Below are positions 20,377 to 42,332 of a stretch of 64,000 bases of DNA, in pieces. A program made the position numbers and the translations under genes. A model generated the notes under the pieces. The model did not search any database, was not told the DNA's origin, and worked only from the letters and a program-made list of their open reading frames with translations. Source of the stretch: Catajapyx aquilonaris (Eukaryota); the NCBI GenBank assembly GCA_000934665.2, contig JYFJ02000570.1, positions 1-64,000 on the forward strand, given 5' to 3'. The stretch's first letter is position 1, and each line of letters starts with the position of its first letter.

Positions 20377-20418
20377 TCAACCAGAACACACCTCTGAATG
20401 TTCATCCCACGCAGCCAC
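20377..20418 (-). CDS. Gene B terminal 42-nt coding exon completing the MYND finger
   Basis: ttgcag|GTG GCT GCG TGG GAT GAA CAT TCA GAG GTG TGT TCT GGT TGA supplies the last His and Cys ligands. Confidence 0.9.
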   Translation of the reverse strand: MAAWDEHSEVCSG

Positions 20419-23400
20419 CTGCAAATCAAGGACATGGAATCCATAAAGTCCCCGCATGTTACGGAAAGAGGAATTTGGGCCAACAAATGAAACATGCATA
20501 GGTAATGGGGGGGGAAAGCTTTTGTCAAGAGGAATTTACTGCATCTGCTGCAGAGACCATGCTTATCTATTCTATGCCTGAAAGGACACGATGGCTTAGC
20601 AAGTCAATATGATGATTTTACTATGCCTAATTTTGTATTGGTTATGCAAAAATTGCAATAGAATCTAAAATGTTCACAGCTTTCATTTGTTTAATGAAGA
20701 AAATCATGTAATTTCTTCAATTTCACTCCNCCCCCCCCCCCCCCATGACTTAACACAAATTAATCAAATGTAAAAACCATACAGTGTGTTTCAAGTACTG
20801 GTATCTGGGTCCTTTTAGGTTTTGCACATTTTCCCTGAACTTGTAATATTTTTGTGTACAAATAACAAGTTCAGGGAAAATTTGAAAAAACTATATCAGA
20901 ATTTATTCACCCTCTATTCTTAGGCAGGAAAGCAAGAGCGGAGCCTAGATGGCCAAGTTTTCTCGTGCCTAAGAAATTCCCATATCGTTCATGGAAACTG
21001 AGATTTCATTATCTTGATGAATGCATGATTGCTTGCCCCTTTGTCATATACCTTTGAAGGTATGCCACCTACACACCAGTATTGCACAATCATGAAGTTA
21101 ATTAAATGTCAATTTTAATAGACAATATGTAACTTCAAAATATAGCTGTCACCCATGCCAGTTGGCAAAAATATTAGTGAGTAAAAATAAAAATTATTAC
21201 TAGTTATCGGTGTGACAATTTTCAACAAAACAAAAAATTGTAAATCCATATTGCTGAATCTGTCACATCCGGGGTCCCAGATAATTATATAAAAAACAGC
21301 ATCGTCCACAAGAGGTGAATGTACAGGAAATACGAAAAACTGCTAATGACTTAACTTGCACCTGTACAAGTTTGAAATTTTTTACATACATGAGTTGCCG
21401 CAGTTCAACTTCATATGATAATGTACACAAATGTGACATCAATATCCAATGACATTAAATTAAATGACTGCTGAACTTGGCTGTTTTTGATCGGGGACCC
21501 CTATTATGTTAAAGAAAACCTGCTGTGCAATTCTAACTTTCACATTTTTAAGAGATACTGTACTATGAATTGCCTAGGAAACAAAAATCTTTGCCATGTA
21601 AAAAAGTAGATGCCCTTTACATGTCCTACAGGTAGACTCTTTTCCTGTAAGCTCAGGAGTATTGTTGGCTCTCTGATTGCAAGGTTAAGGGAAGTGCCCA
21701 GAAGAAAATCCACCTTTGGTTCTCTTTCCTGATAGGAACAACAAGTACTCAAGACAGGAGCAACGGTGAGCCATTGGGCAATTCTATTCTCACCTATGGG
21801 GGAGGAGCAAGGGTGCATGTGCTTTCAGGGACTGGGAATGGAACGCAAGGCAGGTGTGCTTGATAAGGCAGCTGTCCTGGTTCCTCCCCAACAATTGGAA
21901 ATAGAATCACCTCATAGGCAACTTCCCAGTGCACAGTTGTTTCCATCACAGAGTACTCCCTTGACTTAGGATCATGCGCATTTCCACCAGTACATATGAT
22001 CAGCTGAATTCTGTTGGAGGTGGTGCAGTATTGTCATAAATTTTTTGCCATTGTGTAGGAGGGATCAGGACCGCAGTGCCAATGCAAATATAATTGTAAT
22101 ACACTATCCACTTAAAAAATTACTTCAATTTCCACCCTGGAGCGATGTATCCAAATTCTATTTAAGAACACCACTTCCTTCCACGGCCTACAAAGTATGT
22201 AGGAGCACCCATAAAAATGATATGACATAAAAGAGTGCTTCATGTTTGTGTAACTCACCTGGCAGTCCCTACTACAGTACCACTGGTTTCCACATCCAGC
22301 ACATACAAACTGTGCTGCCTTTTGCTGGCACCCTTGGCACTGGGGTACCTTTCCATCACCATCCACTCCAGATCTGGACACACTTGGTCCTGTTGTTGGG
22401 CCATCTTGCTGGTTGCCTCCTGTCTCATCTATCACCAGACGATCAGCACTGTCCTCTTGCTCATCTTCCTGTATATGCATAAATGATATTACATTTTTAT
22501 AACTGATATTTATAATAAGTTAAATCACTCACTCACCACAATCAACTCTTCCTTTGGTGCAGTTCTTGAGGATAATCCTACCCTAGTGATAGAAACTGAG
22601 TCTTTGGTCTGGAACAAACAACAATAATGAGTATCATTTCTGCAACCTTCAGAACAGTGAAATTCACCTTGGAAGAAGCAAGTAATTCTGACAGTGACAA
22701 TGATGAGGAAGAGGTCTGGCTGTTTGATAGAGCATGTTGGGAATGTGCTGCCACATTGTTCCCAATACTATTGCTACCAACACTAGTGTTGTTGCTGTTG
22801 TTATTGCTGATTGCTTCGGGGGATGTCAGCAATCGTGCCAGGGTGGGTGAGAAAGCAGCATTTGGAAGGAGTGATGTTCTTCGGGGATTGCTGGCGGTGT
22901 TTGGAATTCCAGCAGCATTTGCCCTGGTAAGGATCCCTTGCAGAAGAGCAGCTGAAGATGTCACTGGTGGTCGAGAGGAACCAACAGATGGTGTGGACAT
23001 AGAGGAGCTGGTAAGGGAAGGGGAAGAGACAGTGGAGGAAGTCGGTGTAGTTGGGGTGACAGTAGGAAGGAGAGTGGACCTCAATTGTGGGAGTGGAGGG
23101 AGGGAGGATGCCCTGGCCGGGAGCTGTTGGTGCTGCTGGTTCTGGCTCTGACTCATTTTTGCAAACTGGAGAAGCACATCCTGCACAAAGGAGCCACAGG
23201 TTTACATTAGTACTGCTGCAACACAATAATACCTATGTGATGTCAATTAAATGATGCAACTATGAACTGCACACAAAGAAAAATTGGTGACTAAAGTGAG
23301 ACACACCCGGCAACATCTTGTTTGATGGTGCTTTTCAATTAATTTTTATTATTTGGGGTGCTTGCCCTGCATTTACAGCATAATACTATCGTATGTGCAT

Positions 23401-26400
23401 TGATAGCAATTTTCAATGCATTATTTTTACTGTTACATCATTTTTGCAGCCTAGTTCTATTAGAAACTAAATATAAGCTACAGGGAACATGTTCTAAGGC
23501 ACATGCACCAGCACATAAGAATAAAGTGTATGATTCACTTTATGATGATATTTGATTGACAGCAGTGGTCTGGAACCGGACCCACCATACTAACTAGGTC
23601 TCCCTGTATTCAACAGGATATCATATGTAATTCTACGGGCATTATGTCTCCAGCCAATTATTTACTGTATTGCTGTAGAATGACTCAATTACAAAATCTT
23701 GTGTGTAACTGGGTATGCATTGACTGCCACTGATATTCTACACAAGGCAGCAGTGTACATCACTTCCACTTGAAACATCATCTAAAAGGCCAATGGTATG
23801 TATTGGAAAAAGTGAAGTTGACCAGTTAAGCGTTTTCGAAGTTTCTGCACTGGTGGCGCTACTTTCATATTAGCATAAGGCAAGAATGTGCCAGCATATG
23901 GAGTTTTTAAACACCCATCATTCAGAAAATTATTCACATGACAGGACAAAAACCAAATATTTTCAGAAATAATTTCTTTTGACAATCCTGATGATCAAAA
24001 GTAATACACATTGGAATGGCACTCTTTCTTCCGTGTACACCTCATGAATGCTGACTGTGACCAAAACAATGACAACTGCTCACCTTAAAACTGACACTGT
24101 TGTCAGCCATGGGCAAAGAAGAGTTCCCAGTTCCACCAGTACTTGAACTGGAGCTGGCACTGGCAGGCCTTCCTTCATCAGGTATCTCAACCATTCCGCC
24201 AGATGCACCCAGAGATGGGTATAGCGCTCTGACCCTTCTACCCCTCCTGGGGACTTCCTCTGGATGCTTGGATCTGTAGTCAGCAATGATGGACCGTACA
24301 TCCACAATTGGGCCCTGCCTGCCTTCACCTATTACAGCCGCTGGGCCAGCAGCAGGTTTGGGAAGGATGGGTCTTGGCGCTCTACTACTTCCACTACTGC
24401 TCCCAGGCTTCATAGAGTCAGCTTCTGCTTTGTCTGCTGGTGATGCCATCAGAGGCACCATCATCAATGGCACCTGTGGTGTTGTCTTAATGATTTGCAC
24501 TCCTTGCGGTACAAAGAGTTGTGGCACTGGGGTTGTTGGAGTAGACGATGATGGCAACTGTTGCTGTTGTGATTGAGTTGCTGGTGTGTTGAGTGGGGGG
24601 CTTGATCCAGCACTACCATCCATGAGTAGGACATCTCTCCTCCGCCTCATCCTCACAAAGAGCTCCTCCTTGACCTTCTTCAACCGGATGATGTTGTTCC
24701 ACTCACGCTCCTTGAGACGAGCCATGGCTCCTAGGGTCCGAATCTCCTTTTGCAATCTGCTCAGCACGGAGCGAACCTCTTCTACCCCTTCCTCTCCATC
24801 ATCAGGGTCCACTTTTGCTCTCTTAGCCCCATCTTCCCTACCTCCACTTCCTGGCCTCTTTATGGGGGAACTCACCCTCAGCATCTTCTTTGGCCCTACA
24901 AAAGTTTCTCCAGCATCATCACTGTCTGATGCACCTGAGGACATTTCCTCCTCCTCCTCCTCCTCATCGTCTTCCTCGTCTTCTTCCACCACCTCGTCCT
25001 CTTGATCATCATCCACCTCTTCCACCTCCTCTGCCCCCTCTTCCGCTGCTGCTACCACCACTCCCGATGTTGAGGTTGAAGATGACACTGCCACGGACAC
25101 TGGCACTGCTGCTGGCACTGGCACTGTGCCTTCGTCCTTGACTGACTGCCCCGAACACCCCTCTGCTTCCTCTACTGGTACTGATAACTGACCCTCCTCT
25201 GACTTCCCACAAGGTACTTCTGTTGAAGGTTCGCCTGTAAGAGAAAATGAAAATGAAATAAACAATGACTCACTATTGGTCTAAAAAGCTAGAGACATTG
25301 GTTGCCCCTAGTACATGCAATTGGCTTCCTCCAGCTACGAGGAGGTTCTGCGCCATAATATTTGCATAGCTATAATATGCATTTCAAAAATCAGTTCAGC
25401 TGTGTAACAATGGGAATCCTCTGGTAACTCATCTCTCTCTTCCACATCTGAAATTCAAGACTCAGGAGAGAGAGAATGGGAAAAATTCACAGAATTTCCA
25501 CCATCAGAAAAATAAACTGATTCTGGAATACACATTAAGATACTGCAAGATTTTAACGGTGTAAGTTGCAAACAGAATTAGAGACAGAATTGCTTAGAGG
25601 CCTGCCCTCTGCCAGGCCATATTTGAGACTCCAGAACAGAGTCTAATGAAAAGTTTTGGGTTACTGAAACTACCTGAGTAATTATTAGAGAAAATGTGAC
25701 GACAAGATGATGATATAAAGATCTCAAGCTTTTCAAAACTATTTTGAAAAAAAAAGTAGACAGTTGTCGATTTCAGATGTGTAAATAAAAATTTTGGGAG
25801 CGCATTGTGGTTTTTAAAATAAATAGCGGACCTTACTTTCTGGATACGCTAATAATATTTCCTTTGCCGCAAATGACACAGGTATACCAGTGAGCATTGA
25901 GGTCAGTTACAACAACTTTAATTTCTTGAATGAGTGGAGTTCAGTGACCTATTTATTTCAAGTTAGAAAGCACAGTGCATTGGCTCCAAGGTACCAACCC
26001 AAGCAGCCCTATTTCTTCATAATCATGTGCTAACAAAAGTGACCTAAATTGATAATGTGGTTAATCTTGTCACTGAAACCATGCCCTCAGGTCAACTAAG
26101 TGGAAAAACAGAGTGAATAAAAGTGGGGCATATTTTGTCCAGTGTTATCATTGGAGATAATGTAAGTAAACTTAAAGTGACTATTTTGAGAAGGTATGTC
26201 ATAAATAAGCCTTAGAATTCTAACCCTCAATTGTGTTGCCCTGCAACATATCTTACATAGGTGGAGTACTGTTTAAAATGCAAAGTGCATTTGAGATTTT
26301 TTTAAAGTGTACATCAGTAAGAAAATATGCTATGCAAAGGTGCCAAAATGATATAATTACAGAGCTATGGCTCTTTTGACTATTATAAGAATATGCACTT

Positions 26401-29400
26401 TGATGTATAAAAAGTTTGCAGTTGGCAGAAAATTAGGTGCTATTATTGGAATTCATATGACATGCTTATCCTGTGTCCCCAAGCTCGCAATTAACAGCCA
26501 TGTCAAAAGCATGAGCAAGAACAAGAGGCCAATTCTCGAAACCAATTCATCCGTGGAGTTGTCCATGAACTCAACGGGCCAATGGGGTTCATTCAGGCTT
26601 TCGATACGGCTATTTTTTTCTATGCAGCTTGGGAACTGTAGGTTAGATCAGGCACATGAGGCAAGCAATCTTTCACTGACAAAGTAAAGGAATAGTAGGC
26701 GAGCTGACAATGAAAGACCTGGGGGGGGCAGCCTAAGCCAAATAATTTCCTGAACACTTGTAACACCCTGAAATTACATGAGTATGCAGATTATTATTAG
26801 TGCATGAATTCTCTGGCACTACGGAATAATTATCATAAAATTAACGCAGTCATGAAAAATTCAATGACATGTAGCAATGGTCCCATTCTTTCAATAGCAA
26901 GTCATCCTGTCACACAACACAATATCGAATGAATTAACAGTCCGTAAATGACATTATGAAAATCAGCTTTGTAATATCCAGAAATAGCAGGACCTACATC
27001 ACATATTGTGGGACTCCATTCATTTTTTTCTTAATGTAATAGAAATCAAGGGTTTTTTTTGCACATGATTCTTCATCTATTGTACACTTGGGGTTTCCTT
27101 GGTCTTTTTCCAGGACAGGGAGAACTGATGTAATGGGTGATGTAACAGGAGAGGATTTGTGCCAATATGGCCTGGGAGAAAAGGTAGAGGAAAACTAACA
27201 TGGCAGAGAAAATTAAGAAATTAACCTGAATTTTCAATCCTGCTGCAGTCTGCCTTGCCCTAGCAGCTGCTGAGTCCCATAAGTACAAATGAACATCAGG
27301 AGCCCAGAACACGCAGTGGGTCTGACAGGAAATATGGGAATTGACATGTCACAATATATATTGGGAGCACATAAGAAAAATTCAGGTACACCATGTTATT
27401 GATATTGTGGCATCTTTCATCCCTCCCCAGAAAAAAGGACAAGAAAAATGCCTCCTTTGATGTTACAATAGAAAAATAGAAGAAAAAATTAAATCCAGAA
27501 ACATGTGATATATAGGTCCTGACTTTCCTGAACATTTCAAAGCTACTTTGAATATAACGGAATTGACAGAAAACGACCTCACCTTGAATGACATAGTAAT
27601 GAAATCCATACTCCATAGGAAAAAAATTACGGGTGTACCCTGGACTATCCCACAACAGCATTTATTGTGCCTAATATCTATTGTGATAACAAGGTGTTTG
27701 AAAAAATTTCCACCTCTTCACATACAAAGCTATTGTGTTTCTTAATGTGAATATTGTCCCACAATTATTGTCATAATCTAGTGTAATGATGACATGAATT
27801 TTCTTGTACCCTGTTCTCCTGTTGCACTGAAGAGTATGATTATACAACAATCAGAAGTGGTGTAATACTCTAAAGTGGATGTTAACTTGCATTGATAATA
27901 ATATACTTGTAGACCACCAAAAGAAACAAAGCTTCACGGTTTTCCTGCTGCTTTTCCTGACTTTTCCCCAGTGATATTCTAACTAATCTTTTACTGTGTG
28001 GTTGAGGGTTACAGTAGCAAGAGTGTGTCCTCCACAGTTAAGTGGCCTACACATATGTTGTTTTAACATTAGTTTTAGTCTTAGTCTTAAGGATATGCCA
28101 ACCTGTGCTATCCGCTCCATCCTTTATCCAGGAGCAGCCGGCTATAATTGACACAGACTTGACTAAAACTAGAACCAGTATTATACGCACAAGTGCATAG
28201 ACCTCTTTACAAATTCTGCTGCTCCAAGCAGGGAAGTGTTTGCCTACTTCTGAATACTAACAAGTAAGTGCAAGTGAATTTAATTCAATATGAAGTAATG
28301 GTCACAGCATATTAAGAAAAAAACCAGGAGAATAATTACAATGTACTAAGATCAAAAACTTTCAACATGACCACGTACAATTTCTAACACATTCTCAAAG
28401 TTGAAAGCTAAAGGACCATTTTTATGAAAATTATTTTAATTTATCTAGCAATGGTAGATAATATATGACTTTTCGAGTTACCTCTTGCCCAATAAAACTG
28501 AAATTAATGTATCGACACTTATGGTTTGCCAATAAATTAGTCCATTGACTGCGTAGCCTACTATTTAACCTGCATAACCAGCATAATCATTGAATTCAAT
28601 AAACAAAAATGCCAACGCTAAAAATTCGAAGTCACCTACCATTGTCATCAAAGTTTAAAATAAAATTTCTTCAATGTTGCTAGTGCCTCATGTGGTGATC
28701 TTAAATTAGGGAAAGTAACAAACATGCCAATTATTACCAGATGGAATTTTCACTTTTCATGTCAGAATCAATAGCACAAAACTGAGTCTCACTTTCCCAT
28801 CTAGGTATATAGTCTGGTGACCCGGGGTAGCTTGCCCCCTGGGGTAACTGGTTGTTTACTGCTATCCTTTTACATATGCTGCCATGGTGATTACCCCCGG
28901 GATAGCTTACCCAGGGTCATCAGACTAGGGGCCCTAACCTTGATGAACAACCTCCGCAAAGTATTGTTGTAATTCATGGCAAAACCAGTCTTGGAAAGGC
29001 TCTTTCAGAACTTATTGGTCAATTAATTCTACACTCTGCTTATGCACACACGACCACTTCTGCATGTAAACATAAGCACTGCCAAGTACAGCACTCATTG
29101 ATTAGAAAGGGATTGACACATAGAATCCTTGATGTCCACAAACATAAGATAGCAGTTTATGAACTATTGCTTTGTATTCTATCCTATGCAATAAAATGCA
29201 TACATTTAAAAGTTGTCAGTACATCAAAAAAACTTCCTTTCTTTACTTTCTGTCACTGTGATAAATCTCAAACAGGTTATAACTTTTTGAAAACGAATTT
29301 TAGACAAGACCATCACTGCTATTGAACATACAAAAGCAACATGTCTTGAGTTTCAATTTTAACAAACTTTGGAACATGCAACAGTACAATAACTGCTTGC

Positions 29401-30134
29401 AAAGTTGCAACATCAGGGGTCACGGTGCAATAGCAGCAGCTCTTATCAACAGGCTAAACCCGATACATGCCCATATGATAGCTTCAATGAATGAAAGGGC
29501 ATCTATAAATGAAAACAAATGGCATCAAAATGAACAGTGACCACCTGCCAGTGGGTGGTGCATGTGCCATATGTCTCTTATGCACATGATCTTCGACACT
29601 ACAGCAGTGCCTCAGAGCAGCGTGCCAATCAGCCACAAATGCATCACTCTGCATGATAACGTAAGAGGCTTGCTCCGGTTGCAACGAGGCAAATGGGGTC
29701 AGTTAACTAGTGCAGTGCAACGGCCTGTGTGTTTATCTCATGTGCTTTTTGTCATTGGTTTTGTGAGTCACAATGCATGTGGTAGCATGATCAAGTTTTA
29801 CCTCCTCCCCTTACCCTTCTCCTCCTTCACCGGGGCACAGTGTTCGCCGGACGGCCCATCCCAAGAGCAACCTTTGACCCCCGAAACAGACCCATTTGAA
29901 GACGCCGGCTGTGGCTGCGGGGACTTTGACACCGGTGGCAATGGCGGAGTCTCCTTGGAGCCCTCTTTCTTGAGACTAGGATCGGCCCCTGGGTTGTCAT
30001 CCCTAGTTCCGTCACCCCCCATGGTAGTGCTCTGTGGGGCTGCCACTGGGGCTGCCAAAGGTGCTGCAGCCTGCTGACTTGCGTGCTTGGCCTCTTCGCC
30101 TCCTTCCATAGCATGCATTTTGTCTACACGGGCC
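20377..30134 (-). CDS. Gene B: C-terminal MYND-type zinc-finger protein with LxxLL motifs and a predicted coiled coil; exons 30134(or ATG 30118)-29815, 25234-24084, 23180-22668, 22608-22537, 22468-22259, 20418-20377
   Basis: All junctions are GT-AG and phase-consistent (1,0,0,0,0). The spliced C-terminus CQGC-x8-CAGC-x5-CSRDC-x7-H-x3-C (…QVAAWDEHSEVCSG*) fits the MYND consensus. 763 aa from ATG 30118. The orthologue is not recognised. Confidence 0.85.
24084..25234 (-). CDS. Gene B large internal exon (acidic tract, helical/coiled-coil segment RLQKEIRTLGAMARLKEREWNNIIRLKKVKEE, IGEGRQGPIVDVRSIIADYR motif)
   Basis: 407-aa ORF bounded by ctcttacag| (25235-25236) and AAG|gtgagc (24084). Confidence 0.85.
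28810..28927. mobile_element. Short palindromic MITE-like element (~118 bp)
   Basis: Imperfect ~40-bp terminal inverted repeats (tagtctggtgacccggggtagc... / ...gcttacccagggtcatcagacta) with TA at both ends. Only one copy in the window. Confidence 0.5.
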
Positions 30135-30749
30135 CTGCGAATGCAACGGAAAGGTCAGCCTCCATCAACCAATCTGCAACCAAACAAGCCCTCAGGCAAC
30201 ACCAGTACGTGTAGAGTACTGTACCCCCACCCCCATATGCAATCAGGAGAGTGCAGTGTCTTGCAGGCCAACTTCCCCGACCTTCCACTCTGCACCAAGT
30301 CAAAAAGTGGGTCACGTGTCAGCGGCCTGCCGGGCATGCGGGTGGGGGTGGTGGGAGGTACGGTGAGGGGGATGACGTCGATGCACTCTGAAGACCGCAA
30401 GGGGCAATCACCACTCCCATCCCCCTCCCATGCCCTGTACCAATACGGTATCGTATTTTGCACATCGAACAGTACGGTATGTCGGTCAAGGAGTGTGAAA
30501 GGAGGAAGCTGTACCAGGGCAGTGAAGGGCACCCAACCATGTACTTGAGGTCATCCTTCGTAATGTGTTACCTTCCCATCCGCGGGCTCCGTTGCGGGAC
30601 AGACCCCGCACTTTCACACACCCAAGCCACTGTATCACCCGTACGCAGCAACACACAGTACTCCGCAACAGTCCTCCACCTTCTGCTTCCTCCGTTCCAC
30701 TTTTTCTTACAATAGCCTCCTCTCTTTTGCTCTCTCCCTCCACCCCCGC

Positions 30750-31360
30750 CTACCCTCCTCTGCCTTTCCCAAAGCTGCCCAACCGCCGCAGTGAGGTCAT
30801 GTGAAGACGTCTGTGGACCAATCAGCGAGCGAAGCGCCGATGTGACCTTAGTGTCCCCTTCGCCAGCTGCGCCGACTGATCCACCAATGGGGAAGCCGGA
30901 GCAGGGGTGAATAGACGCTGACTGCAGGAGGGGGATGGGAAGGGGGGGAGAGCTGGCGGTGGAGGGTAGGCGTCGCGACGCATCCACCCCTACCCTCCAA
31001 CCACCCACCCACCCACATGAGAGGTCATTGGCTGGATAACAGCCCTGACCCGTGGGTCAATAACCCCACCCGACGTCCTATTTCCAGCCCTGCCAAAGCG
31101 GACGTTGAACCCAGTGTTGGAAATACGGTACCTGCTACCGGGCATTAAATTGACCTAATTTCATAACTGGTCATATTGTCGTAGGTCATGACCTGACCAC
31201 CTGTCCACATTCCTGGGGCACGGGAGGATCGAGGGGGGAAAAAAATAACAGCGGCCTGTACAGGTCGTTATCTCCGGCACTAAAAAAAACCGGGGCTGCT
31301 TGCACTCCGAATCGAGGGCGCGTACCACTTCCTCAAGCCGGAAGTGGAAGATCGGAGTGG
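30750..31360 (-). promoter_or_regulatory. Putative internal/alternative promoter for gene B
   Basis: GC/CpG-rich region with CCAAT boxes (30818, 30884, ATTGG 31027), ETS site CCGGAAGT (31338-31345) and AGGTCA-type elements (31151-31194). Confidence 0.4.
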
Positions 31361-34300
31361 TGGCTACGCCTCTTTTTTTGGGCCTCATTAACTCTGGGCG
31401 GAGGTTAAATGGAATGACACGAATTGGAAACAGTGACCTTTCCGCACCGTGTATTTTGCATCGTACGTCTGTTGGGAAAAAAAGGGACAGTAAATATACC
31501 GGTAGGCCTATGCGTCTTCACCGAGGTTTCTGACCTAACCTAATTTCACTCGAGTTGCTCGTTAGCCTCCTTCACACTCTCGGTATGTAAAAATCCCAGA
31601 CATTGCCTGGAATTAAATGGTGACCGGAATTTCTCGTCTATTATGTATAGCATTCGTGACTAACAATACCAAAAAGTCAAGGTTGCGCAGTGTCTTTTGT
31701 TTTGTCCTGAATATGTCGTAGCGTGTTCTATGTCAAAGCTATTATACTCGTGGGCATGTCCCGAGGCGATCATTGTCAATCGATCTTCAAGGACTAAAGC
31801 CTACGTTGTGCTGTGTGAATGACGTAGGTTGATACGGTAACTGTACGGAAATTCAAACGTCCCGCAAGTACGATCCGACGCGTAGTTCCCTCTCAACTAG
31901 GTGGCACCACCGGTCAGACCATGCTCTGATGAACCTAGCTGATGAGGCAAACAATGGTGCTGAAACATGATTGCACTCATGACCCTGAGGTTTGCATGTT
32001 GGGACCTCGACATGTGCACTTACAATGTCCCCCATAGTAATAATTACGATTTAAAATTTAAAGACATCCGTTGCCAAATGATACGGGGTCACTATCCTAT
32101 ATGTAACGGTGGCCACCTTCGAGGGAGTGCTATATTTAGGTGCCCCGTTAGGACACGTGTGTGCTTGGTGTGTGTGCCGTGTGTCAGCCAGCAAGTACGT
32201 TAACAGCATGGCACGCACCACAAATACAATATCTAGATAGGCAGTCCGTATTTGTCCAGCCTGAATATTGAATAGAGTCATGTGCATTGTTTGTGGTGGA
32301 GATTGAAGAAAGACCTATTTTGCGACTTGTAATATCGTAAAAGTGGAGGTTACGAAGCGAGATAAACCGGCAACAAGAGAGCGACAACCTTGCCTATATG
32401 TGTTGTTGAACCCTTGTGCTCCTATCGAGACGGTTCAACGACATGAGATGTTGGAACCGGAAGTGGTTATGTGCACCGATATATAGGTGTATTGGTCGTG
32501 ACGTTGAGGATGACAATGGACGGGGAGAGTTACTTTCTATTCCATCCCAAATGCTGAGAGGTGATTCTCGTTGTTTTTTTCCTACATGAGCTTTTTTAGG
32601 CAAAATTTCACTTGGGCAAAAACCACTTTACAAAATTCTAAGCAACATATGGACATACGGATTAGTCGATTTGTACACAAACAATTACACAAACCATTGC
32701 CTATAATAATGTTTACTGCAATTGAGTCTGTTTCGACGACCAGGTCTGCATATTTAAGGCGTATCATCACATAAGTTCTTATCAGTTTCCTGCTTTATAA
32801 AAACAGTGGGCTACTCATAAGCCTATTTCCGTTCCCAATGCAAGGGGAAGAAGTTGGAAGGAGGAGATAAAAATAAATATTAATAGCACACTTATGATAT
32901 CTATAAGTACACCCTGCTGGCCTGTATTTGGACGGCTAATGATGGACAGGTCGCACATGTGTTTTATAGCGCATTTTAAAAAGCAATTGACAATACAGCA
33001 CTTTACTCTATAACTACAATTAGGTATTTCCTTTAAACAGTTCATATATGCATGCCTATTGTAAGAAAATTAATAAATCCATAATTAGTTTATGTGGTGT
33101 AGTCAGGTGTAAAAGAACCTGAGCCAGTTTCCGTTCAGCTTGCCTGACGACGACTTGGAAGAGAAAGTTATTTGACTATGGTTATTTGGCAAACTGCACG
33201 TTTCATGATTACACTGTCTGATATACGTGCAGTCTCTCTACAAATTATTCCGACGTAAGTAATGATGTATCCTGCATCAAACATTACTCACTAGGTGGAT
33301 ATTAAGTTTTCTAGAAATTATCCAAAAAAGCACGTATTTTTCAGTTGATTTGAACCTACTCGTGTTTCACGACAACTTTCATCCATATAGCTTGCATCGC
33401 ATGATTAGCAATAGAAGTTGCCCTATACGTTTTGCTGACACAAAAATCATAATCAGTGTCTCATAATTAATAGAAGACCTAAAGCGTGTATAGACTTACA
33501 TGAACTCGAGCAGGTTTTGTGTCTCTGCTGACGAGATACTATCGTGTTGCAGTGTCAAGTGACATGCGGATCATGATCATGCAAGGATCTCGGAAACAAA
33601 AGGATTGCCGACCTCCACTAATAAATGTGCCATGGTGTTACAAAACAAATGAGCAACAAAAGTGGGGATTGATGGTACAAAAATATGTGAATAAATTGTC
33701 AATGCTGCATTATGGGACACAAGTGAAGGGAAAATATGCCTACGGGACGGCAGTTCCTGGATACAGCAGGAAAGAGACAAGATCATTATTGATGCCTATG
33801 TGACCGATGTTACAGTAGTAGTGCCCTTTCCACTGAAGTAATGCAAAAATTATATTACACATGTTAACACAATTATTTGAGAGAACGGTCTAATATGGAG
33901 ATGAAACATTAGCATCAGGCCGGCCTTTATGTTCCTAAACACGTGTCAGACAATGTAATTTTTCTTTGCTAAAATACGCAGTTGGTTACTAACTGTAACT
34001 TGCAAATCCTTTGTTAGGCTATACTCCCAGATGTGGTTAAGAAACTACACGTCACAAAAACTCAACCCGTCATATTTAAACAAACGAGCCATCCAGGCGC
34101 AACACGAGCGGATGATACTTCACCAGCCGTAAATCCAATGTGGAAGTGCCGCAATACACACGCCAAACACGTAAAACGACAGTAGTTATCGAGCTCATTA
34201 AGCAAAAGTTCTAACCCAATACAACCTAACCTTGTAAAGTCTTGCTATAGACGTAGGTCAACCAGAGGGCAATTTACTGCACGTGACGTAGGTCACCCAT

Positions 34301-35026
34301 TAGTGTTGCATCAGGATTGTTTTCCCACGTTACCTGATGAGATCACATGCTTCTTAGTGGGTTTGCTGAATAATAATGATGCAATAAGCTACATATGGCT
34401 GGATATGGGCTCACAATGCATGCCCATATCTTCTTCCTATAGGGTAGACTTCCCGTCAGACAAGAAATGCTCCAGTTACCCGCTAGGTGACTCACTCAAC
34501 CTGCATGAGACCTGCCCTATTGAATTTACGGATATTGCTTATATTTGCTGGACACTGATTAGTGATTAATTATCATATTGTACTGTATAGTATGCTATCG
34601 GCATCGTAGAACCAAGAAGCAGGAGGAAAATCCATGGGGATCTCAGCACATATGCGTCAATGAGAATAATTGTCCATATGGGCATTTTTATTAATGGCAG
34701 CAATTAACGCATCTTGCAATGAGCGGTATGCAATGAGTTTTACGACCATTAAATCCGATGATGCTGCAGTTTCAAGCATGATTATCTCTCCGTGTGGAAA
34801 TATTTACGGATTTTCTCTCAGAACGGCTTTCAAGTTGAAGCCCTGACGTCATACTTCCTGCGTCAATCTTTACTATAGAAACTGCTATGTAGTTCCTAGA
34901 CTTTCTCAGATGCTGTCTAGCTGAAAAATTGTTGCCTGGGATATGATAATGGGGGCGTGGATGGATTACATAGACAAAGTGGGGGTGGACGTAATCATTT
35001 TAAAATGTAACTACTGCGACGCTAGT

Positions 35027-35970
35027 GTATTCATCCAGCTGTGCAGCAAATACATCGCAGATTGGCAGAGCAATCCTAGAGAAGAATAAGGTCCATTATT
35101 TTATAGTGTCGATTTTCTATACTGCGTCAAAGCCTGTAGTATGAGGCAATAATGACGCAATATGCACAGCAGATATACGTTTTACGTTAGTGCAGCTTTT
35201 ATAGAAGCCAGAGGCATGTGCAACATTTAGTGAATAATTCCTCGACATTGTTTGATAAATACATTTTTGCTGCCGAAATCCAAATTAATATCACTACCGT
35301 CCATAGCTGGAAATAACTTTAAAATCTATTAGGCAAGACTATACATATGATACTTTTAAATACAGTTTTTTTGTGTAGCCTGTCACCGAATTCTGGGTCT
35401 GCAGGAGCCAGTGTATGCACAATGCCCTTGGATGAACAGAGTTGCACTGATTCACTGTAACATACACTCATACATGTGTTTATACAGTACAGCTTGCATT
35501 ATCAAGATCGCGTGTTCCCTACGTATGACGTCAATAGTCACAAACCGCAGTAGTGTGAAAGCTCTCCAACTTTGCTATCATGCTCATGATAAATTGATAA
35601 CTACAACATGTTATTTTCAATAAAATGCCTTGGCAAAGTGGCTGAGATCATGAGCCCTTTAAGCCTTCACAGTACATCCTGCTGGTTAATTGTACGGTAT
35701 TGTAGCTGTCGCTATATGTGGGATACCTATGAATTCTGACAGACTGTCCCATGATAAAGACAGCTACAATCCACCGGCCTACAGGCCATTATGGGCTCGA
35801 TTCCGGTCATCAACAGATCGACACCTAAGGATTATATTGTCGTATGTTCCAGAAAGGTGGACATACGACAATATAATCCTTAGGCGTCGAGATAGCATAT
35901 ACTGTAGCACAAGAGTATTCATCCAGCTGGGCAGAAAATGCATCGTAGATTGGCAGAGCAATCCAGGAGA
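35027..35970 (+). repeat. Pair of ~55-bp direct repeats (35027-35082 and 35915-35970)
   Basis: gtattcatccagctgtgcagcaaatacatcgcagattggcagagcaatcc versus gtattcatccagctgggcagaaaatgcatcgtagattggcagagcaatcc. Confidence 0.8.
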
Positions 35971-38900
35971 ATAGTATAATGGTATACTATTCTCTTGGCT
36001 ATACAAAGGCCATCAGGTGCAAGTGTATACAAGAAAACCTGCTGTATTCTGAAAGCATTGTGTTATAAGTTATTTCCCCCATTATATTAGTTCAAGAGCA
36101 GCATATTGGATGAGGAAAACTGCAGCGTGGGTATTGTTGAAAAATATATCATTGCGATGCAGGAAAAAGCAAACTCGCATTAATTTATTAGGACAAGGGA
36201 TCCTAATGTAGCACCTTGCACATATTATCTACTCAATAATTGCCTTACACACTGGTGATTTGCTACATGTTTCGTTAAGAAAAATGCTGCCGTACTCTAA
36301 AAAAAATTGCGGACCAGACATAGCATGCATGTGTATATAGATTGAATTTATTCAGGATGACCTTGCTATGTTAATAGGCATGCCATTGAGAAATGAATAG
36401 CTGCAATTTATTCTGAAGGCTAATGTAGAATGATAGTATTACCAGTCTGAGAAAACCCTATTTACACGATGAAATATTAATTCCGGAAGTCAAACCTGCA
36501 GGCTATTGCTATAAAAAATAATATCTATCAGGCTTCAGTGACGACAAAAGAGGCAGTCGAGAGCTTCGCCATACTATGTAATACGATGTTAGGGTTTTCC
36601 CAGAAAAATGCTCCCGTTCTCTCAAATTTAGGGTAATTTCAAATTTTCCAGACGAAAACGTGTACTTTATTTTGGCAATTCAGCTCTCTTACGGCGGCAG
36701 TCGTACATTACTTTTCGTTTTGAGACACCCACGTAAATGGTAAATAATACCCTGCGGGTCAGACGACTCCGATAATACTGGTGGTTGAGGCATGTCAGCA
36801 TACGATGTTTCGTACCCGATGAAATAAAAATTATATGCGATTATCCTCATAATGGTGCCATAATCGCCAAAAAATAAACAAAAATGGCGCGTTGAAAATT
36901 TGTAAGGAACCTATAGATAAATCCAAGATGAAGGACGAACCTTTTAGAACACTGCTGTGTATATAGTTCCTGCAACAGTTGTGTTTCAATTGAAGTGCCA
37001 CTTCAATTAGCAATTTGCCTGCGTATAGATCAGTTGGGACAGAAGTACAGTACAGTATATTTCCTATACTCACATCCATGGAGTAGCCTGCTGGGATGAT
37101 AATTATACTGTATGATATTTCCCACAACGACATTGTCATTCTGATGGTGATATATATGATGGGTAAACACTACATCAGCATTTGAACGCATTAAGGTGAC
37201 ATTTTAAACACTACACTTTAAAAAGTGAAGCTGGATCTGACGGGTATATGAAGGTCACGGTTGAAAAAGCTGGGCCATAAAAAAAAGCGTCAAAGGGTAC
37301 TGTACAGTGTACAGGCTCTTGAAACTGATCCAAGGGTCGTTGTTGGGCTGTTTTTTAAACGGCAACATGATATGGGTTTCATTGTAATTCATGATCGGGT
37401 CTGACTTTTTTTACTCCATGCTTTCACGTGCTGTAACTTTAGAGTACGGTACTGGATTTTACAGGCAGCTTTTATGTCTTATCCGTTCTCCCAAATGCTG
37501 AACTCCGGCTGTGGGTTATCAAAACGTGAATAATTTTAATGGGACACAAAAGCGGTTGAAGGTGCTTGCCACGTAGGACTGTGTAATATCTATAGATTTT
37601 CTGTACCGCCTTATTGCAATGCCAAACTCTGGTGCTGACACTCTGCAGGTTAATACAGTCGAATAGCCATACTCAATTGAAATTGATAATCTTAATCTGA
37701 ACTAAAAATTGCTAGTCCTCCCTCTAAAAGTAAATATTTAAAAACAGAAACTCTCACAGCAGGACTACAGATGCGCCTGAAGCTTATCTAATATAAGGAA
37801 TTTTTACGATATACATCCAGTATAACTAAACCAATAAACTTCCACTTAGGATAAATTCCTGGCCACTATAGGGGATCATAAGTCAGGGTCTATTTTATCT
37901 ACTTCATATTGTCAATGACAGCAAAATGACACTTCTACACATGATGCCATCCACAAGAGCTCAGAAACACCCTAGAATTTGGCTGGTCTATTTATTAGTA
38001 ACAATTCAAAGTTTGGTCAATAGGTGGATAAAATGTGCCCGGGGCCCCTCGTGAGTGTTACATAATTAACGTGGGAACCGACCCGTGGAACCAAAATATT
38101 TCAAAAGATCAATTGGATAAAGTTAATGAGTTTAACAATAACGAATGTTAATGTTGCTTTAAAATATTTATTAGATATAGCCAAGTCATTCAGGTACTTT
38201 CACCCTGACTTATCCGATCGACGCACCTTTGTGCGTTTGTCATATTCTCCAGGGAAAGTGCCACAAAAGCATTGCCTCGACCCGATGCTTTTATGACTCC
38301 TCGGAAGGCCTTTTAACCACAGTAAGTACAATACTGGCAGCGATGCTTTTAGCCCTATTCACCATTGTGTTTTCCATAGTCCCTCCGGTCAGGTAATATA
38401 CCGGTATGGGACCACAGACCTTTTCTATATACCACTTGATACTCAGCAAACAGAAGGGAAAGTGCAGGGTTCTGTAACATAATGCGACAGGTCCAGGGGT
38501 CAACCCTAAGTGGTGACCCACTGCACTTGCCCTTTCTCCTGATACCATCGCGGCTACCCCTTTCAGGCATTTACTCCTTCGGGCAATGTCATACCTTGCT
38601 CTCGTGATTTCAAGGGGAAGATAATCATGGCCATTACACATGGTGGCCGTGAAAAATCAATGCAGTTTCAACATTAATTATTTACTATCTTGATTTAACG
38701 CGCGTGTAGTTTTCCTAGCTGTCGGGGAAATACAGGTAACACGCACCTGCCGACGTATTGTGACATTTCCCGTCACTTTCAAGTTTGTGCTCTGTCGAAA
38801 CATGGTCTGAGCTTACGAATGTATATAGCAATCTACAAAACATTTAAGAATACAATTTATATTCACTCTGCTACCAGTATGAAGCGTCGCAGTGACTGAA

Positions 38901-39959
38901 AATTGCAATCAACTGAAAGCACTTGAATGTACAGATTTCCGTTCCACATAAACCACTGACCTGGTTCAAACCTCGAATCAATGCCATACTATTTGTAGCA
39001 ACTCTCAGATATTTTGCAACCACATGTCCTATACGTATATCGACCTACATGGAAGAATCTAATTCTATTGAAACCAAGTACTTCCCCTTTCTGTTTTGCT
39101 TGCCGTCATAGTCATACATCTGATACCATCCCTGTTCAATCTACTTCACCACGAGGTAAAGTACACAGAACCAAAATTGAAAACGTCTTTTTATAAATGG
39201 ATATTCGAAAGTCTGATAGCTATTTCACCAATATGGATTTAGGTGGAAATATTGTAAACAAAGTCTTTCAATCAAACTTTGTCACATATAAGGTCATTTT
39301 CCATTCGTCAATTAGTGCTTTGTTGCGGCGAAGTTCAGAAATGGCTTTCACAATTCCCAACAGATGATTTTTAATACTCCAATCATCTGCTGACCCATAG
39401 TTTAAAAAAAATAAACAATGCATTCCACCGATCAACCCTGACCTTGCTGTCTACGAGACCTTGTCTTAAATGCTCCATATATGCCTTTGGCGAATACCTA
39501 CTGGTTACGCACACACCATGAAGATGCACGTCCGATACGTCATGTCGCAACTGTACAATGTTATGTAACTGGTATGCCACGACGATGACGCCAAATCTGT
39601 CCACGGTACAGTACTATCTAACAAAAATAACCTGCCTTACTACGCATTTCTAAGCTCGTTTAATTATGACTCAAATGGTAGCAAAAACGTATTGTACCGG
39701 TACTTGTAATGAACATCTCAATCCCTGCTGTGAGAGACGGCCGTAAAGCGACGCCTCCTTGGGTGGCAACTAGGTATAAATTCACGGCCTTCCACTTCTA
39801 GTGGCAGGCCCATGACCTTAGGGTCAACTCCAGTATATCTGTACACGCCATAACATCCCGGCAAGTACGTGACTAGTATTGTTTCGACCAGAAATTGGTG
39901 CTGACGTCACATTGATCATTGTTGACATTGTGACGTCACTACCATTCTCTGGTTGTGGT

Positions 39960-42332
39960 CTAATGCAAAATATACCTTTGGCATACAGCAGCTAATAGCT
40001 TGGCTGCTGAAGCACCGGATGAGGCCGAGGCCACAATGGCATCGCAGACATCTTTGACATCCGCGTTGGGCGACAGTGGAAGCAGCTGGGGCAGGCGACC
40101 TCCGTCATTAGCGGCATGGTTGACCGCCGAGGCTGCATCCTTCAAACCCGGAAGTGTCTGATGGTGATGGTGGTGCCTAGGCGCCGGCGCCAGAGCATCG
40201 CACAGCAGGGCTTCTGCAGTACCGGCCTTGCACGCACTGTTGCAATCCGGAAATGGCGCCATTGCCTGGCGCCACAACTGGTGCAACAATTCCAGCCGGG
40301 CTTCACATGGCGCCGTGGCCGACACGGGGAAGCAGGAAGGGTAGGCGCCTGCAGGAGGAAGGGCCGCCTGGAGCCATGATGGCGCTGCAGCGGCGTGGAA
40401 TGGGTACCAAGATGGCGCCGGAGGTGGCGGTGGTGGAGGAGCAGGTACGGGCGGAGGAGGCAGCCCCTGGTGCGACTGGTGATGATGGTGGTGATGGTGA
40501 TGGTGGTAGTGGTGCTGCTGTTGCTGCTGGGGCTGCTGCCTCTCCTGGTGGTTGGCATCTGGTGCGGTAGGTGCAGGTGCCAGTTCGCATGGCAATGCAC
40601 GTCGAAGCTCGGCGACAAAGTCTCTGAGTCGAGTGCCAGGTTGGGCTAGGAGTAGAGGAACCTCCCTGGCCGGGTCTCGAACCAAGGAGTGGAGTCGACC
40701 TAACGATAGGACAAGGTAGTCCGGATCCTGCAGGACTCGAGGACAGGAGAGGACTTCTGGAAAGCGGAGTTCTCTGCGGGTCAAAAGGGCGGGCAGCTCC
40801 CTGGCCGGACAGGCCAAGAGGGCAGCTAAGCGTGATTTTGGTAGAATTAAAGGGTCAGGGACTTCCATGTCTGGTCTCGCGCACAATAGTCTCAACTGCA
40901 ACGATGGGTCACCCCAGTGCTGTGGGTGCTGCTGCTGCTGCTGCTGCTGCTCCTGTTGCTGGTGCTGTCGTGTCTGTTGCTGTTGTTGCTGTTGTTGCTG
41001 CTGTTGGTGGTGACGGTGCACGTGAAGGTGCTGCTGCTGTGCCAATAACGCCTTTAATCTACAAGAACCTGACGACGACACTCGTGGCCTCTTTGGTGGC
41101 GGTACCGGTTGAGATGTCGATGTCGAAGTTGCCGTCGACGTCGACGATACCGGCGGTTGTTTTCCTTCGTCACAGATGGCGCGGGAGGTCGATTCTGGCA
41201 GGCAAGGGCCATCACGAGTGGACAGATTCAGCGGAGAATCAGATCGATCTTCCAAAGGAACGGCAGCTACACGGATGGAGGCATGTACGGCCACCGTCGG
41301 CGAAGTTTTCGGTACCGGTACCGGTAAGGGGGCGGGTGGTGGCTCTTGCAAACGCGCCAGCAGCAGAGGCATTCGTTTGACCTCTTCGCTCTTGGTCGCA
41401 CTATCACTGACACTATCCTTATTTGCACCAGCACTCTCTTGTTCCTCCTCCTCCTCTTTACTCTTTTTGGCAAAGCACAAGTCTAGTGGCGCCAGTACTG
41501 GCTGAGCGTCCTCAGGACCTTCTGACTGTCGGTCCTCCTTATTACTATTGTCCTCATCATCACCTTCCTGAAACATTGCATCTGAATGGTGATCACTCCT
41601 CCTCCTCTTCCGTCTCCTCCTCCTCTCTTTGGTATGTACATCGTTGTCCCTGTCACTCACCGCACCCGACGTGTCGCTCTTCTCCCCTTCCTGCACCTGT
41701 CGTTGTCCCATAGTCCGACTAGTCCTGGGCACTGCCCTCCAACCCCCGGCGGCCGTCTTGGTCAGCCTGATCCTATTCCGGGGGTCATAATCCTCGCAGT
41801 ATACCTCGACGATGGTCATGTCTCTCTGGGTGGCCCACACAAACACAGGTGTCACCCTACAGTTATTGGGACGCCGATGGTGGTGATGGTGCCGGCCGTG
41901 ATGGTGATGATGCCGGTGGTGATGCCTTCTGGTTTCCCAATCGTCGGGCCTCAGCAGGTCGGCCTCTGATTCCTCCTCTTCGTCCGCGTCCCCGTCCTCC
42001 TCGTTGTCGTGCCGATGCTGAAGGTGTCGGTGTCGTCGCGGCGACTGGCTCATGACGGGATCAATGTCCTCCTGCGCTCCGTCCTCCCAGCAGCCCGACG
42101 GCCTCCTCTGCTGTTGCCTCTTCCTACTGGCACCGGCTGTACCCTGCTCGGCTGTGGATGGCACCAGCGATGCCGGTACCGCCCCGCAGCGGTTGAGCGC
42201 GGACAGTAGCGGTGCCGGTAGTGGCGCCAGCAACACCGAGCAACCTGGTGTACTGGCGCTGGTACTGGCGCCGGGGGTGTCCTCTGCTGGGAGTGGCTCT
42301 GGTCTGCTGTGTATGGCCGAGCCGCTGCTCAT
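39960..42332 (-). CDS. ORF C: 790-aa single large exon, His/Gln/Pro-rich, with PxDLS-like and LxxLL motifs; either a stand-alone gene or the 5' coding exon (42332-39976) of gene B
   Basis: 2.37-kb uninterrupted GC-rich ORF, good Kozak context (gcgccATGa), acceptor-like ccgtag| at 42363-42364 30 nt upstream in frame, potential phase-2 donor AAG|gtatat at 39976. Contains two non-low-complexity blocks (41721-41858, 40614-40910). Confidence 0.8.
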   Translation of the reverse strand: MSSGSAIHSRPEPLPAEDTPGASTSASTPGCSVLLAPLPAPLLSALNRCGAVPASLVPSTAEQGTAGASRKRQQQRRPSGCWEDGAQEDIDPVMSQSPRRHRHLQHRHDNEEDGDADEEEESEADLLRPDDWETRRHHHRHHHHHGRHHHHHRRPNNCRVTPVFVWATQRDMTIVEVYCEDYDPRNRIRLTKTAAGGWRAVPRTSRTMGQRQVQEGEKSDTSGAVSDRDNDVHTKERRRRRKRRRSDHHSDAMFQEGDDEDNSNKEDRQSEGPEDAQPVLAPLDLCFAKKSKEEEEEQESAGANKDSVSDSATKSEEVKRMPLLLARLQEPPPAPLPVPVPKTSPTVAVHASIRVAAVPLEDRSDSPLNLSTRDGPCLPESTSRAICDEGKQPPVSSTSTATSTSTSQPVPPPKRPRVSSSGSCRLKALLAQQQHLHVHRHHQQQQQQQQQQQTRQHQQQEQQQQQQQHPQHWGDPSLQLRLLCARPDMEVPDPLILPKSRLAALLACPARELPALLTRRELRFPEVLSCPRVLQDPDYLVLSLGRLHSLVRDPAREVPLLLAQPGTRLRDFVAELRRALPCELAPAPTAPDANHQERQQPQQQQQHHYHHHHHHHHHQSHQGLPPPPVPAPPPPPPPAPSWYPFHAAAAPSWLQAALPPAGAYPSCFPVSATAPCEARLELLHQLWRQAMAPFPDCNSACKAGTAEALLCDALAPAPRHHHHHQTLPGLKDAASAVNHAANDGGRLPQLLPLSPNADVKDVCDAIVASASSGASAAKLLAAVCQRYILH

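Follow-up and report, generated by a model that had tools for sequence, protein, structure and literature searches.

The window analysed here comprises 64,000 nt of contig JYFJ02000570.1 of Catajapyx aquilonaris, and the gene under study lies entirely on its minus strand. Two parts of this gene, an open reading frame of 800 codons (ORF C) and a gene encoding a MYND-finger protein (gene B), very probably constitute a single transcription unit, in which ORF C serves as the 5′ coding exon, the coding sequence is composed of seven exons, and the product is a 1554-aa fusion of two protein families. The joined form is carried by an assembled contig of a public run, where the donor of ORF C is connected with the acceptor of gene B exactly to the base. 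Both halves are conserved insect families without characterised function. In insects they are separate, often linked genes, and no fused homologue was found in the databases searched. In the gene model proposed here, an 800-codon "orphan" frame and a MYND gene 9.8 kb away encode one protein, which an annotation keeping the two apart would miss.

Gene Model and Transcript Evidence

ORF C is a stop-to-stop frame (42362–39960, minus strand) with an ATG at 42332. Its tail reads GTA TGC CAA AG/gtatat (the slash marks the splice site), and the final exon base is 39976. If unspliced, the frame meets an in-frame stop at 39962–39960, five codons past the donor, including the split AGG (YILH, then stop). 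The acceptor of gene B is ggctgacctttccgttgcattcgcag/G; the exon begins at base 30134, and the ATG of gene B (30118–30116) lies 16 nt 3′ of the acceptor. Thus, the phase 2 donor a few codons before the stop of ORF C and the phase 2 acceptor in front of the gene B ATG, on which the original prediction was built, are both present exactly. The open join that it proposed was also reproduced: the seven exons give 4665 nt, or 1554 codons and a stop, with no internal stops. The model was compared with the assembled contigs of a public run, designated X1 (library kind unrecorded; contigs totalling 32 million letters), aligned to positions 22350–42349. The features of the joined gene are as follows.

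39976–42332, minus strand: coding exon 1 (ORF C), 2357 nt, from the ATG at 42332 to the donor CAAAG/gtatat; based on the sequence and on X1 contigs over 39975–41618 (record 1) and 41616–42319 (record 2)
30135–39975, minus strand: intron 1, 9841 nt, GT..AG, phase 2; one X1 contig, depth 31.3
29815–30134, minus strand: coding exon 2, with the conserved KMHAME motif; based on the sequence and X1
24084–25234, minus strand: coding exon 3, with an acidic tract, the coiled-coil-like KEREWNNIIRLKKVKEE block and the IGEGRQGPIVDVRSIIADYR block; GEGRQGP at 24309–24329
22668–23180, minus strand: coding exon 4, with SFK/DVLLQFAKMSQ, LLQGILT and TLARLLT.PE (LARLL at 22827–22841)
22537–22608, minus strand: coding exon 5, 72 nt; X1 joints 22467/22536 and 22608/22668
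22259–22468, minus strand: coding exon 6, with the acidic LIVEDE / DRLVIDE stretch, resembling a SUMO-interacting motif (SIM), and the start of the MYND finger (from 22339)
20377–20418, minus strand: coding exon 7, with the end of the MYND finger (VAAWDEHSEVCSG) and the stop TGA at 20379–20377

The X1 contig that carries the junction (record 1) is 4148 nt long, has a depth of 31.3, and shows no other letters over the listed pieces. It joins 30133 to 39975, skipping 9841 nt with CT..AC on the plus strand; moving the cut by one position gives 30134/39976. The same contig joins 22467/22536, 22608/22668, 23179/24083 and 25233/29814, in each case with CT..AC on the plus strand, which corresponds to GT..AG on the gene strand. 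All five joints coincide with junctions predicted beforehand from the sequence. The 39976 to 30134 junction, which had been put forward as the decisive check, was therefore found to the base in one contig, together with four of the other five predicted junctions. A contig with this exact join means that the C+B mRNA exists, and ORF C thus acts as the 5′ coding exon of the MYND gene.

Within ORF C, record 1 extends to 41618, and a second contig (record 2; 704 nt, depth 4.5) spans 41616–42319. The depth in the bins flanking intron 1 (15 in 29687–30353 and 18 in 39692–40358) equals the depth expected from record 1 alone, which leaves no further X1 contig that would pass from the intron into exon 2 or from exon 1 into the intron. 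Of the three products envisaged in the original prediction (C alone, B alone and C+B), C+B is the only one seen among the X1 contigs. Cover is absent on 30354–35689 and on intron 1 except for repeat-like pieces, and this was not counted as evidence of absence. Short contigs with both ends loose are located at 25748–25793, 28879–28933 and 35853–35890, in introns 1 and 2; these are probably transcribed repeats or transposon fragments. In the last intron, a poly-G run containing N at about 20727–20745 looks like a weak spot of the assembly.

The run appears to be derived from RNA, since five introns are cleanly removed and the introns have no cover. The junction could also be an artefact, caused by chimeric de Bruijn assembly or by a DNA copy without introns (processed retrocopy) as the source of the contig. 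The kind of X1 is unrecorded, and the data are contigs of a single run from a single study. However, one contig has five joints, each of them precisely at a GT..AG site that had already been predicted from the sequence, the frame stays open across them, and no deviating letters occur in the pieces of record 1. The uncovered introns and the modest total of 32 million letters of contigs fit RNA, and a retrocopy would itself stem from a spliced mRNA. An artefact is accordingly very improbable.

The C Half: A CG16711-like Protein

A HMMER search against 1.84 billion representative sequences revealed 138 homologues of ORF C at E ≤ 1e-3, with lengths of 85–2019 aa. All named ones are insect proteins, titled uncharacterised or given automatic low-complexity names; the Drosophila melanogaster member is CG16711 (NP_729532.1). 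The 215 high-scoring segment pairs from these 138 homologues all fall within the 40.5–42.0 kb bins of the window. Two conserved blocks were delineated.

41709–41933, minus strand: block 1, aa 134–208, a His/Arg-rich run followed by RVxPxFVW..IVEV.CEDYD.RNRIRLTKT..GWRAxPRT, from the homologue alignment
40647–40907, minus strand: block 2, aa 476–562, a predicted folded domain of two strand-helix-helix repeats that includes LAALL and LPALL

Block 1 is 67% identical to Blattella C0J52_21114 and 67% identical to CG16711 (E 2e-16). Block 2 (PDPL..P..RL..L...PA.E.P.LL..R.ELR.PE) is 47% identical to CG16711 (E 2e-21) and is also shared with Blattella C0J52_21114. Both blocks, together with PxDL-type and LxxLL motifs between them, are common to CG16711 and its orthologues (Blattella C0J52_21114, Osmia LOC114871326, Hermetia LOC119647893).

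In a family profile built from 39 homologues (1276 nodes), aa 71–550 of ORF C aligned to nodes 21–820 only, with 205.7 bits, and nodes 821–1276, the C-terminal third of the family, had no match in ORF C. The family blocks MLWLPYL, CKSLxNLL, PIDLSG, KLKVKQHLIDP, LWHPLFG and WNWTTVTATGE are missing from it. These C-terminal blocks were not found anywhere in the 64 kb by tblastn with 131 tails and 68 middle pieces to E 5, nor with the tails to E 50; only scattered matches appeared, several of them with stops. A weak cluster of matches at 50068–50230 and 57005–57190 was considered as the missing part and rejected as low-complexity or stop-containing noise. Judging by the alignments, the C half is the first two thirds of a CG16711-family protein. 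Whereas CG16711 and its relatives continue into their C-terminal third, ORF C splices instead into the MYND protein.

Pfam searches returned no family on ORF C (E up to 0.1) or on 29 distinct C homologues. A PDB sequence search with ORF C gave nothing over block 1 or block 2; its matches were confined to the His/Gln/Pro-rich tail (aa 533–682), with a best E of 0.0055. When comparing C-family models, differences at the C-terminus can be noted: in P0053, P0054 and P0055 compared with P0062, P0067 and P0108, some end at LWHPLFGR, at LWHPLFSR or in apparent intron read-through, and others go on ...SPWNWTTVTATGE. A small last exon has probably been missed in several insect annotations of this family.

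The B Half: A MYND Family with an Old Acceptor

With the 383-aa exon 3 as query, 50 longer homologues of gene B were collected (680–1489 aa), and all named ones are from insects. The MYND finger is recognisable by pattern in 47 of the 50, and 16 have an N-terminal THAP domain according to precomputed Pfam annotation. Seven homologues match all B exons in order. The blocks of the family are present in the window in their proper order: MHAME, the coiled coil EWN..KVKEE, IGEGRQGP..ADYR..RRGRR, SFKDVL.QFAK.SQ, TLARLLT.PE, DRLVIDE and the terminal AWDEHSEVCSG. In an alignment of 28 members, the coiled-coil-like block, IGEGRQG..D.RSIIADYR, ARLLT.P and the MYND residues are invariant, and the I of DRLVIDE is nearly so. 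All blocks from KMHAME to AWDEHSEVCSG are shared with the insect THAP/MYND proteins (Nasonia LOC100115141, Blattella C0J52_21117, Bacillus rossius LOC134541744), which indicates at the sequence level that the B half is the whole of the insect MYND family represented by Blattella C0J52_21117.

Exon 6 alone is matched by zf-MYND (PF01753) with E 1.1e-5 and 25.8 bits against a cut-off of 22.7, and a complete C4-C2HC finger occupies aa 1515–1552 of the joined frame. With the finger of a homologue aligned, PDB sequence matches were ZMYND10 (E 1.5e-7), CBFA2T1/ETO (0.005) and DEAF1 (0.1). One database model of the B family, P0043 from Hetaerina americana (1419 aa), has an N-terminal Tc5-transposase helix-turn-helix (PF03221) before MLVMETE and is probably an annotation chimera with a transposon.

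The beginning of the B half deserves separate consideration. In all five hymenopteran isoform pairs, THAP-bearing and Lys/Glu-rich N-termini converge three residues (LNK) before the methionine of MHAM, and the acceptor in the window is five codons before the same methionine. The supposed start of gene B thus immediately follows a splice site to which, across insects, alternative 5′ coding exons are joined. In the insect THAP/MYND proteins, too, an acceptor precedes the MHAM methionine by a few codons; unlike in them, the upstream exon here is the CG16711-like ORF C and not a THAP or Lys/Glu-rich exon. By this comparison, the acceptor before MHAM is ancient and, in this lineage, is occupied by the ORF C exon. 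A THAP exon was not found in the window with a profile of 11 THAP N-termini run against 2717 six-frame segments (best E 2.5), and it may lie outside the 64 kb.

Linkage of the Two Families and Origin of the Fusion

The two families remain separate among database proteins. None of the 138 C homologues contains MYND, GEGRQ or MHAME, and searches of the 50 B homologues with ORF C (phmmer, E up to 10) and with 162 C homologues (blastp, E 1e-3) matched none of them. The C blocks and the MYND/IGEGRQGP blocks were thus never found in one protein of another arthropod, and the expectation that they might occur together elsewhere failed. At the level of database proteins, the protein of Catajapyx is a fusion relative to insects.

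Linkage was counted in eight insect species for which both homologues were listed, with identical contig size in bp and locus tags serving as a proxy for a shared contig. Both homologues are on one contig in Blattella (475,489 bp; C0J52_21114 and C0J52_21117), Cephus (431,906 bp), Osmia (9,721,635 bp; LOC114871326 and LOC114871324), Microplitis mediator (26 Mb) and Belonocnema (184 Mb). Co-location in the first three is far beyond chance, and that in Microplitis mediator and Belonocnema, where the contigs are chromosome-scale, is weak evidence. Separation of the homologues, which, if consistent, the original prediction had named as a sign against a common gene, is seen in three of the eight species and not in the other five: C–B linkage is common, but not universal.

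The arrangement resembles conjoined genes and Rosetta-stone fusions, in which genes located on one scaffold elsewhere are joined by an exon of the upstream gene spliced to the first internal acceptor of the downstream gene. Here, too, the parents are separate elsewhere and the joint consists of the donor of the upstream gene and an internal acceptor of the downstream one. In contrast to conjoined genes, 3′ exons of the upstream partner could not be detected, and no form other than the joined one was seen in X1. For these reasons, it looks like a fixed fusion rather than occasional read-through. Apparently, the exon of a neighbouring gene would have come to fill the slot for alternative 5′ exons before MHAM in this lineage, which would make the locus an example of an acceptor kept for alternative 5′ exons capturing a neighbour gene.

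The reverse course of events can also be considered, namely that a single C+B gene is ancestral and was split by fission in insects, where C acquired its C-terminal exons and B acquired THAP and other 5′ exons. In an unrooted tree of the B half, the window is on a long branch, weakly grouped with Odonata (0.86), and its identity to insect members is 35–47% over 409–491 aligned columns; the long branch and low identity indicate a lineage distant from all sampled ones. Its position outside the sampled insect orders would suit an ancestral fusion, and the contig sharing that survives in Blattodea and Hymenoptera would be left over from the former single gene. However, the C-terminal blocks of the C family are common to the homologues read from Blattodea, Coleoptera and Diptera, so these blocks are old, and they are absent here. 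The tree, moreover, is unrooted and its support is weak. Ancestry of the fused gene is the less probable course beside the capture of ORF C by gene B.

One Gene or Two

The alternative to a single transcription unit is two separate genes. In that case, a C-only mRNA would end in intron 1 (790 aa, stop 39962–39960), a B-only mRNA would start from a promoter at 30.1–31.5 kb (763 aa), and the C-to-B splice would be a secondary chimeric read-through that happened to assemble. The base composition of the locus bears on this possibility. The observed/expected ratio of CpG (CpG o/e) is 0.05–0.5 over the B exons and introns (20–30.5 kb) and, starting at about 31 kb, 0.7–1.0 across intron 1 and exon 1. 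Such a pattern resembles that of germline gene-body methylation restricted to the B part. Next to exon 2, one further feature was delineated.

30135–31500, minus strand: GC-rich stretch (0.52–0.60) at the 3′ end of intron 1, adjoining exon 2, taken by inference alone as a candidate internal promoter; no X1 contig on it

This stretch contains long open frames in several frames of both strands and might represent an exon that was not recognised or an internal promoter. The internal ATG at 30118–30116 would begin the 763-aa B-only protein.

Several observations weigh against the single gene. The families are separate proteins in all sampled insects, and since the homologues are on different contigs in three of the eight species (Diploptera, Orussus, Eretmocerus), their union is not general. 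The methionine of MHAME is conserved, and five of the 50 B homologue models begin exactly there. The CpG o/e step and the GC-rich stretch before exon 2 would suit a promoter of B's own. The donor of ORF C (AAG/gtatat, without G at +5) seems by eye weaker than the other five donors of the gene. Transcript support comes from one run of one study, of unrecorded kind, in the form of contigs and not reads. Such contigs prove single junctions, not one molecule from ATG to stop, and rare variants are lost in them. They end at 42319, so that 13 nt remain up to the ATG, and the last intron (22258–20419) is outside the aligned stretch, with record 1 continuing past that end. In addition, the depth drops from 31.3 to 4.5 toward the ATG at 41616–41618, so many transcripts may start within ORF C. 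This break could reflect an internal start downstream of block 1 or poor cover of a GC-rich repeat of His codons.

Against two separate genes stands the truncation of ORF C: it is without the last third of its family, the exons for which were not found in the 64 kb, and a stand-alone C would be a truncated member. The sole X1 contig that leaves exon 1 or enters exon 2 is the joined one, with its depth of 31.3. Within 1.2 kb past the donor, inspection by eye found no canonical AATAAA and only two ATTAAA. Weighing all this, we regard two separate genes as improbable and a single transcription unit as the better account. The CpG o/e step, the GC-rich stretch, the conserved MHAM methionine and the step in X1 depth are hints of further isoforms; none of them is evidence.

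Motifs and Predicted Structure

The motifs listed in the original prediction (two PxDLS-like, six LxxLL, the SIM-like LIVEDE/LVIDE and a terminal MYND finger) were all located in the joined frame. LxxLL occurs at aa 426, 502, 513, 747, 1390 and 1439, PLDLC at 282, PLNLS at 367, GEGRQGP at 1195, LIVEDE at 1469 and LVIDE at 1482. Six LxxLL were found versus 0.66 expected, and none of 2000 composition-preserving shuffles reached six; two Px[DN]L[STC] were found versus 0.18 expected (P 0.013). Three motifs between the blocks were compared with motifs of the family.

41475–41489, minus strand: PLDLC, aa 282–286, aligned to family PTDLS(I/L)PK / PKDLSYKK in the profile alignment (PLDLCFAKK)
41220–41234, minus strand: PLNLS, aa 367–371, a possible counterpart of family EPLDLGK / EPLNLGK
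41043–41057, minus strand: LKALL, aa 426–430, aligned to family ITLKNLL

The equivalence of PLNLS is approximate, as in the profile the family motif comes about 20 residues later. Of 162 C homologues, 28 match both anchor patterns, and motifs between the blocks were counted in these. All 28 have at least one P.[DN]L[STGCNV] and 25 have at least two, typically PTDLS(I/L)PK or PKDLSYKK and EPLDLGK or EPLNLGK. LxxLL between the blocks is also present in all 28 (FLESLL, ITLKNLL, SRLLELLT). Of TLARLLT.PE in the B half, which contains LARLL, the ARLLT core is invariant in 28 of 28 family members.

AlphaFold2 modelling of aa 130–570 with 39 homologues indicated disorder except for block 1, with four short strands at a predicted local distance difference test (pLDDT) of 58–75, and block 2 (pLDDT 87–95). 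When modelled alone, block 2 again formed two strand-helix-helix repeats (mean pLDDT 78.9, predicted template modelling score 0.67). LAALL and LPALL are in helices of this predicted domain, and PDPLILP forms one of its strands. Being within a confidently predicted fold, the two LxxLL are unlikely to be free nuclear-receptor boxes; in the model, LAALL, LPALL and PDPLILP are probably structural and not free docking motifs. PDPLLVP as a free PXLXP ligand of the MYND finger was considered and rejected, because according to the model it forms a strand of the folded block 2. Block 2 itself is an internal duplication, and its second repeat in the window keeps a second PAREVPLLL, which matches the profile of the first repeat.

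Searches for structural relatives of aa 130–570 gave a best Foldseek E of 2.2 and a best VIA Z of 4.9 (for example, root-mean-square deviation (rmsd) 3.1 over 52 aligned residues), all on a poly-Q helix. For block 2 alone, the best Foldseek E was 0.78, and the best Z VIA-wide was 2.8 (rmsd 3.4, 40 aligned). Failure to match a known fold does not make that of block 2 new. A predicted complex of the Blattella C homologue (195–600), the B homologue (640–734) and two Zn had a score of 0.01, which is informative neither way.

Possible Function

NRIP1/RIP140 and LCoR carry LxxLL boxes and CtBP-binding PxDLS motifs. Like them, the fused protein is long and largely disordered, with several LxxLL and PxDL-type motifs. 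In a protein-language-model search, an NRIP1-like cluster ranked third (0.78) and adenovirus E1A seventh (0.76); these are leads only. Unlike a homologue of NRIP1, the protein shows no sequence homology to it, and two of its LxxLL are inside a predicted folded domain. The NRIP1 repression domains (NRIP1_repr_1 to NRIP1_repr_4) had no Pfam match on ORF C with E up to 0.1. The MYND corepressor adaptors ETO/CBFA2T1, DEAF1, BS69/ZMYND11, ZMYND8 and ZMYND10 have a C-terminal finger with C4-C2HC spacing, as here, whereas their TAFH/NHR2, SAND and PHD-bromo-PWWP modules are not present, and zf-MYND is the sole Pfam match of the fused protein.

CtBP binds PLDLS motifs (PMC9907507). The MYND finger of ETO binds PPPLI in SMRT/NCoR, and that of BS69 binds PXLXP in E1A, EBNA2 and MGA (PMC3555993). 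CG16711, which a 2016 paper calls uncharacterised (PMC4938649), was reported as a Drosophila-specific interactor of Sfmbt by BioTAP-XL (Kang et al. 2022, PMC9451159). According to data file S1 of that work, 14 CG16711 peptides were recovered with Sfmbt from embryos and 11 from S2 cells, with none in the inputs, and none were obtained with RYBP, L(3)73Ah, dKDM2, E(z), Pcl, Scm and Jarid2 as baits (PMC9451159). In the Sfmbt embryo sheet, CG16711 is sixth by enrichment, after ocm, pho, Su(z)2, Sfmbt and Asx (PMC9451159). The factors usp, EcR, Hr46, Smr, H and CoRest are also enriched in this sheet (PMC9451159). The pull-down is broad, so co-listing with CG16711 does not show direct contact. A literature search by homologue identifiers returned no papers, and searches on THAP, MYND and CtBP in insects gave nothing on either family among the matches listed. 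CG34179, named beside CG16711 in PMC9451159, was considered as the fly member of the MYND family and rejected, being a 21-kDa protein.

From these observations, a role can be outlined. The fused protein would be a nuclear, largely disordered scaffold of repressive chromatin complexes. Its C half has a run of basic and His residues, a small block rich in strands and a domain of about 90 aa, in addition to disordered linkers that contain LxxLL and PxDL-type motifs. It might supply whatever ties fly CG16711 to Sfmbt/PhoRC-type complexes and possibly recruit CtBP through the PxDL motifs, while the MYND finger would dock a partner with a proline motif. We put this scaffold function forward tentatively, at somewhat less than even chances. 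For the corepressor hub envisaged in the original prediction, the argument is one from motifs: conservation across the family applies to LKALL, LARLL and the PxDL-type motifs, whereas LAALL and LPALL fall inside a predicted folded domain. Two points weigh against it. PLDLC and PLNLS, although in low-pLDDT regions, both depart from strict PxDLS, and CtBP is absent from the top-ranked rows listed for the fly Sfmbt pull-down (PMC9451159). As a reading of the sequence, the corepressor-hub account is plausible, and contacts of the fused protein with CtBP, nuclear receptors (EcR/USP) and SMRTER are possible from its motifs.

That the CG16711-like and the THAP/MYND proteins, two unstudied conserved insect families, are fused in one lineage and share a scaffold in several others points to a common function, and the two families are now linked. 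A speculative Rosetta-stone reading, to which we give only a minor chance, is that the two proteins co-act across insects in a Polycomb-type repressive assembly (Sfmbt/PhoRC, PRC1.6-like). Since the BS69 MYND finger binds a PXLXP motif of MGA, and Ocm, the fly MGA orthologue, ranks just above CG16711 in the Sfmbt list, the MYND half could dock Ocm/MGA or SMRTER, with the C half holding Sfmbt and perhaps CtBP. If so, both the contig sharing in five of eight insect species and the fusion in Catajapyx would reflect that partnership. The testable hypothesis that follows is a role of both families in repressive chromatin, a context in which fly CG16711 has been recovered together with Sfmbt.

Other Features of the Window

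Pfam returned no match on the 12 other long ORFs of the window. Downstream of the joined gene, a 696-codon open frame without a Pfam match occupies positions 890–2980 of the minus strand.

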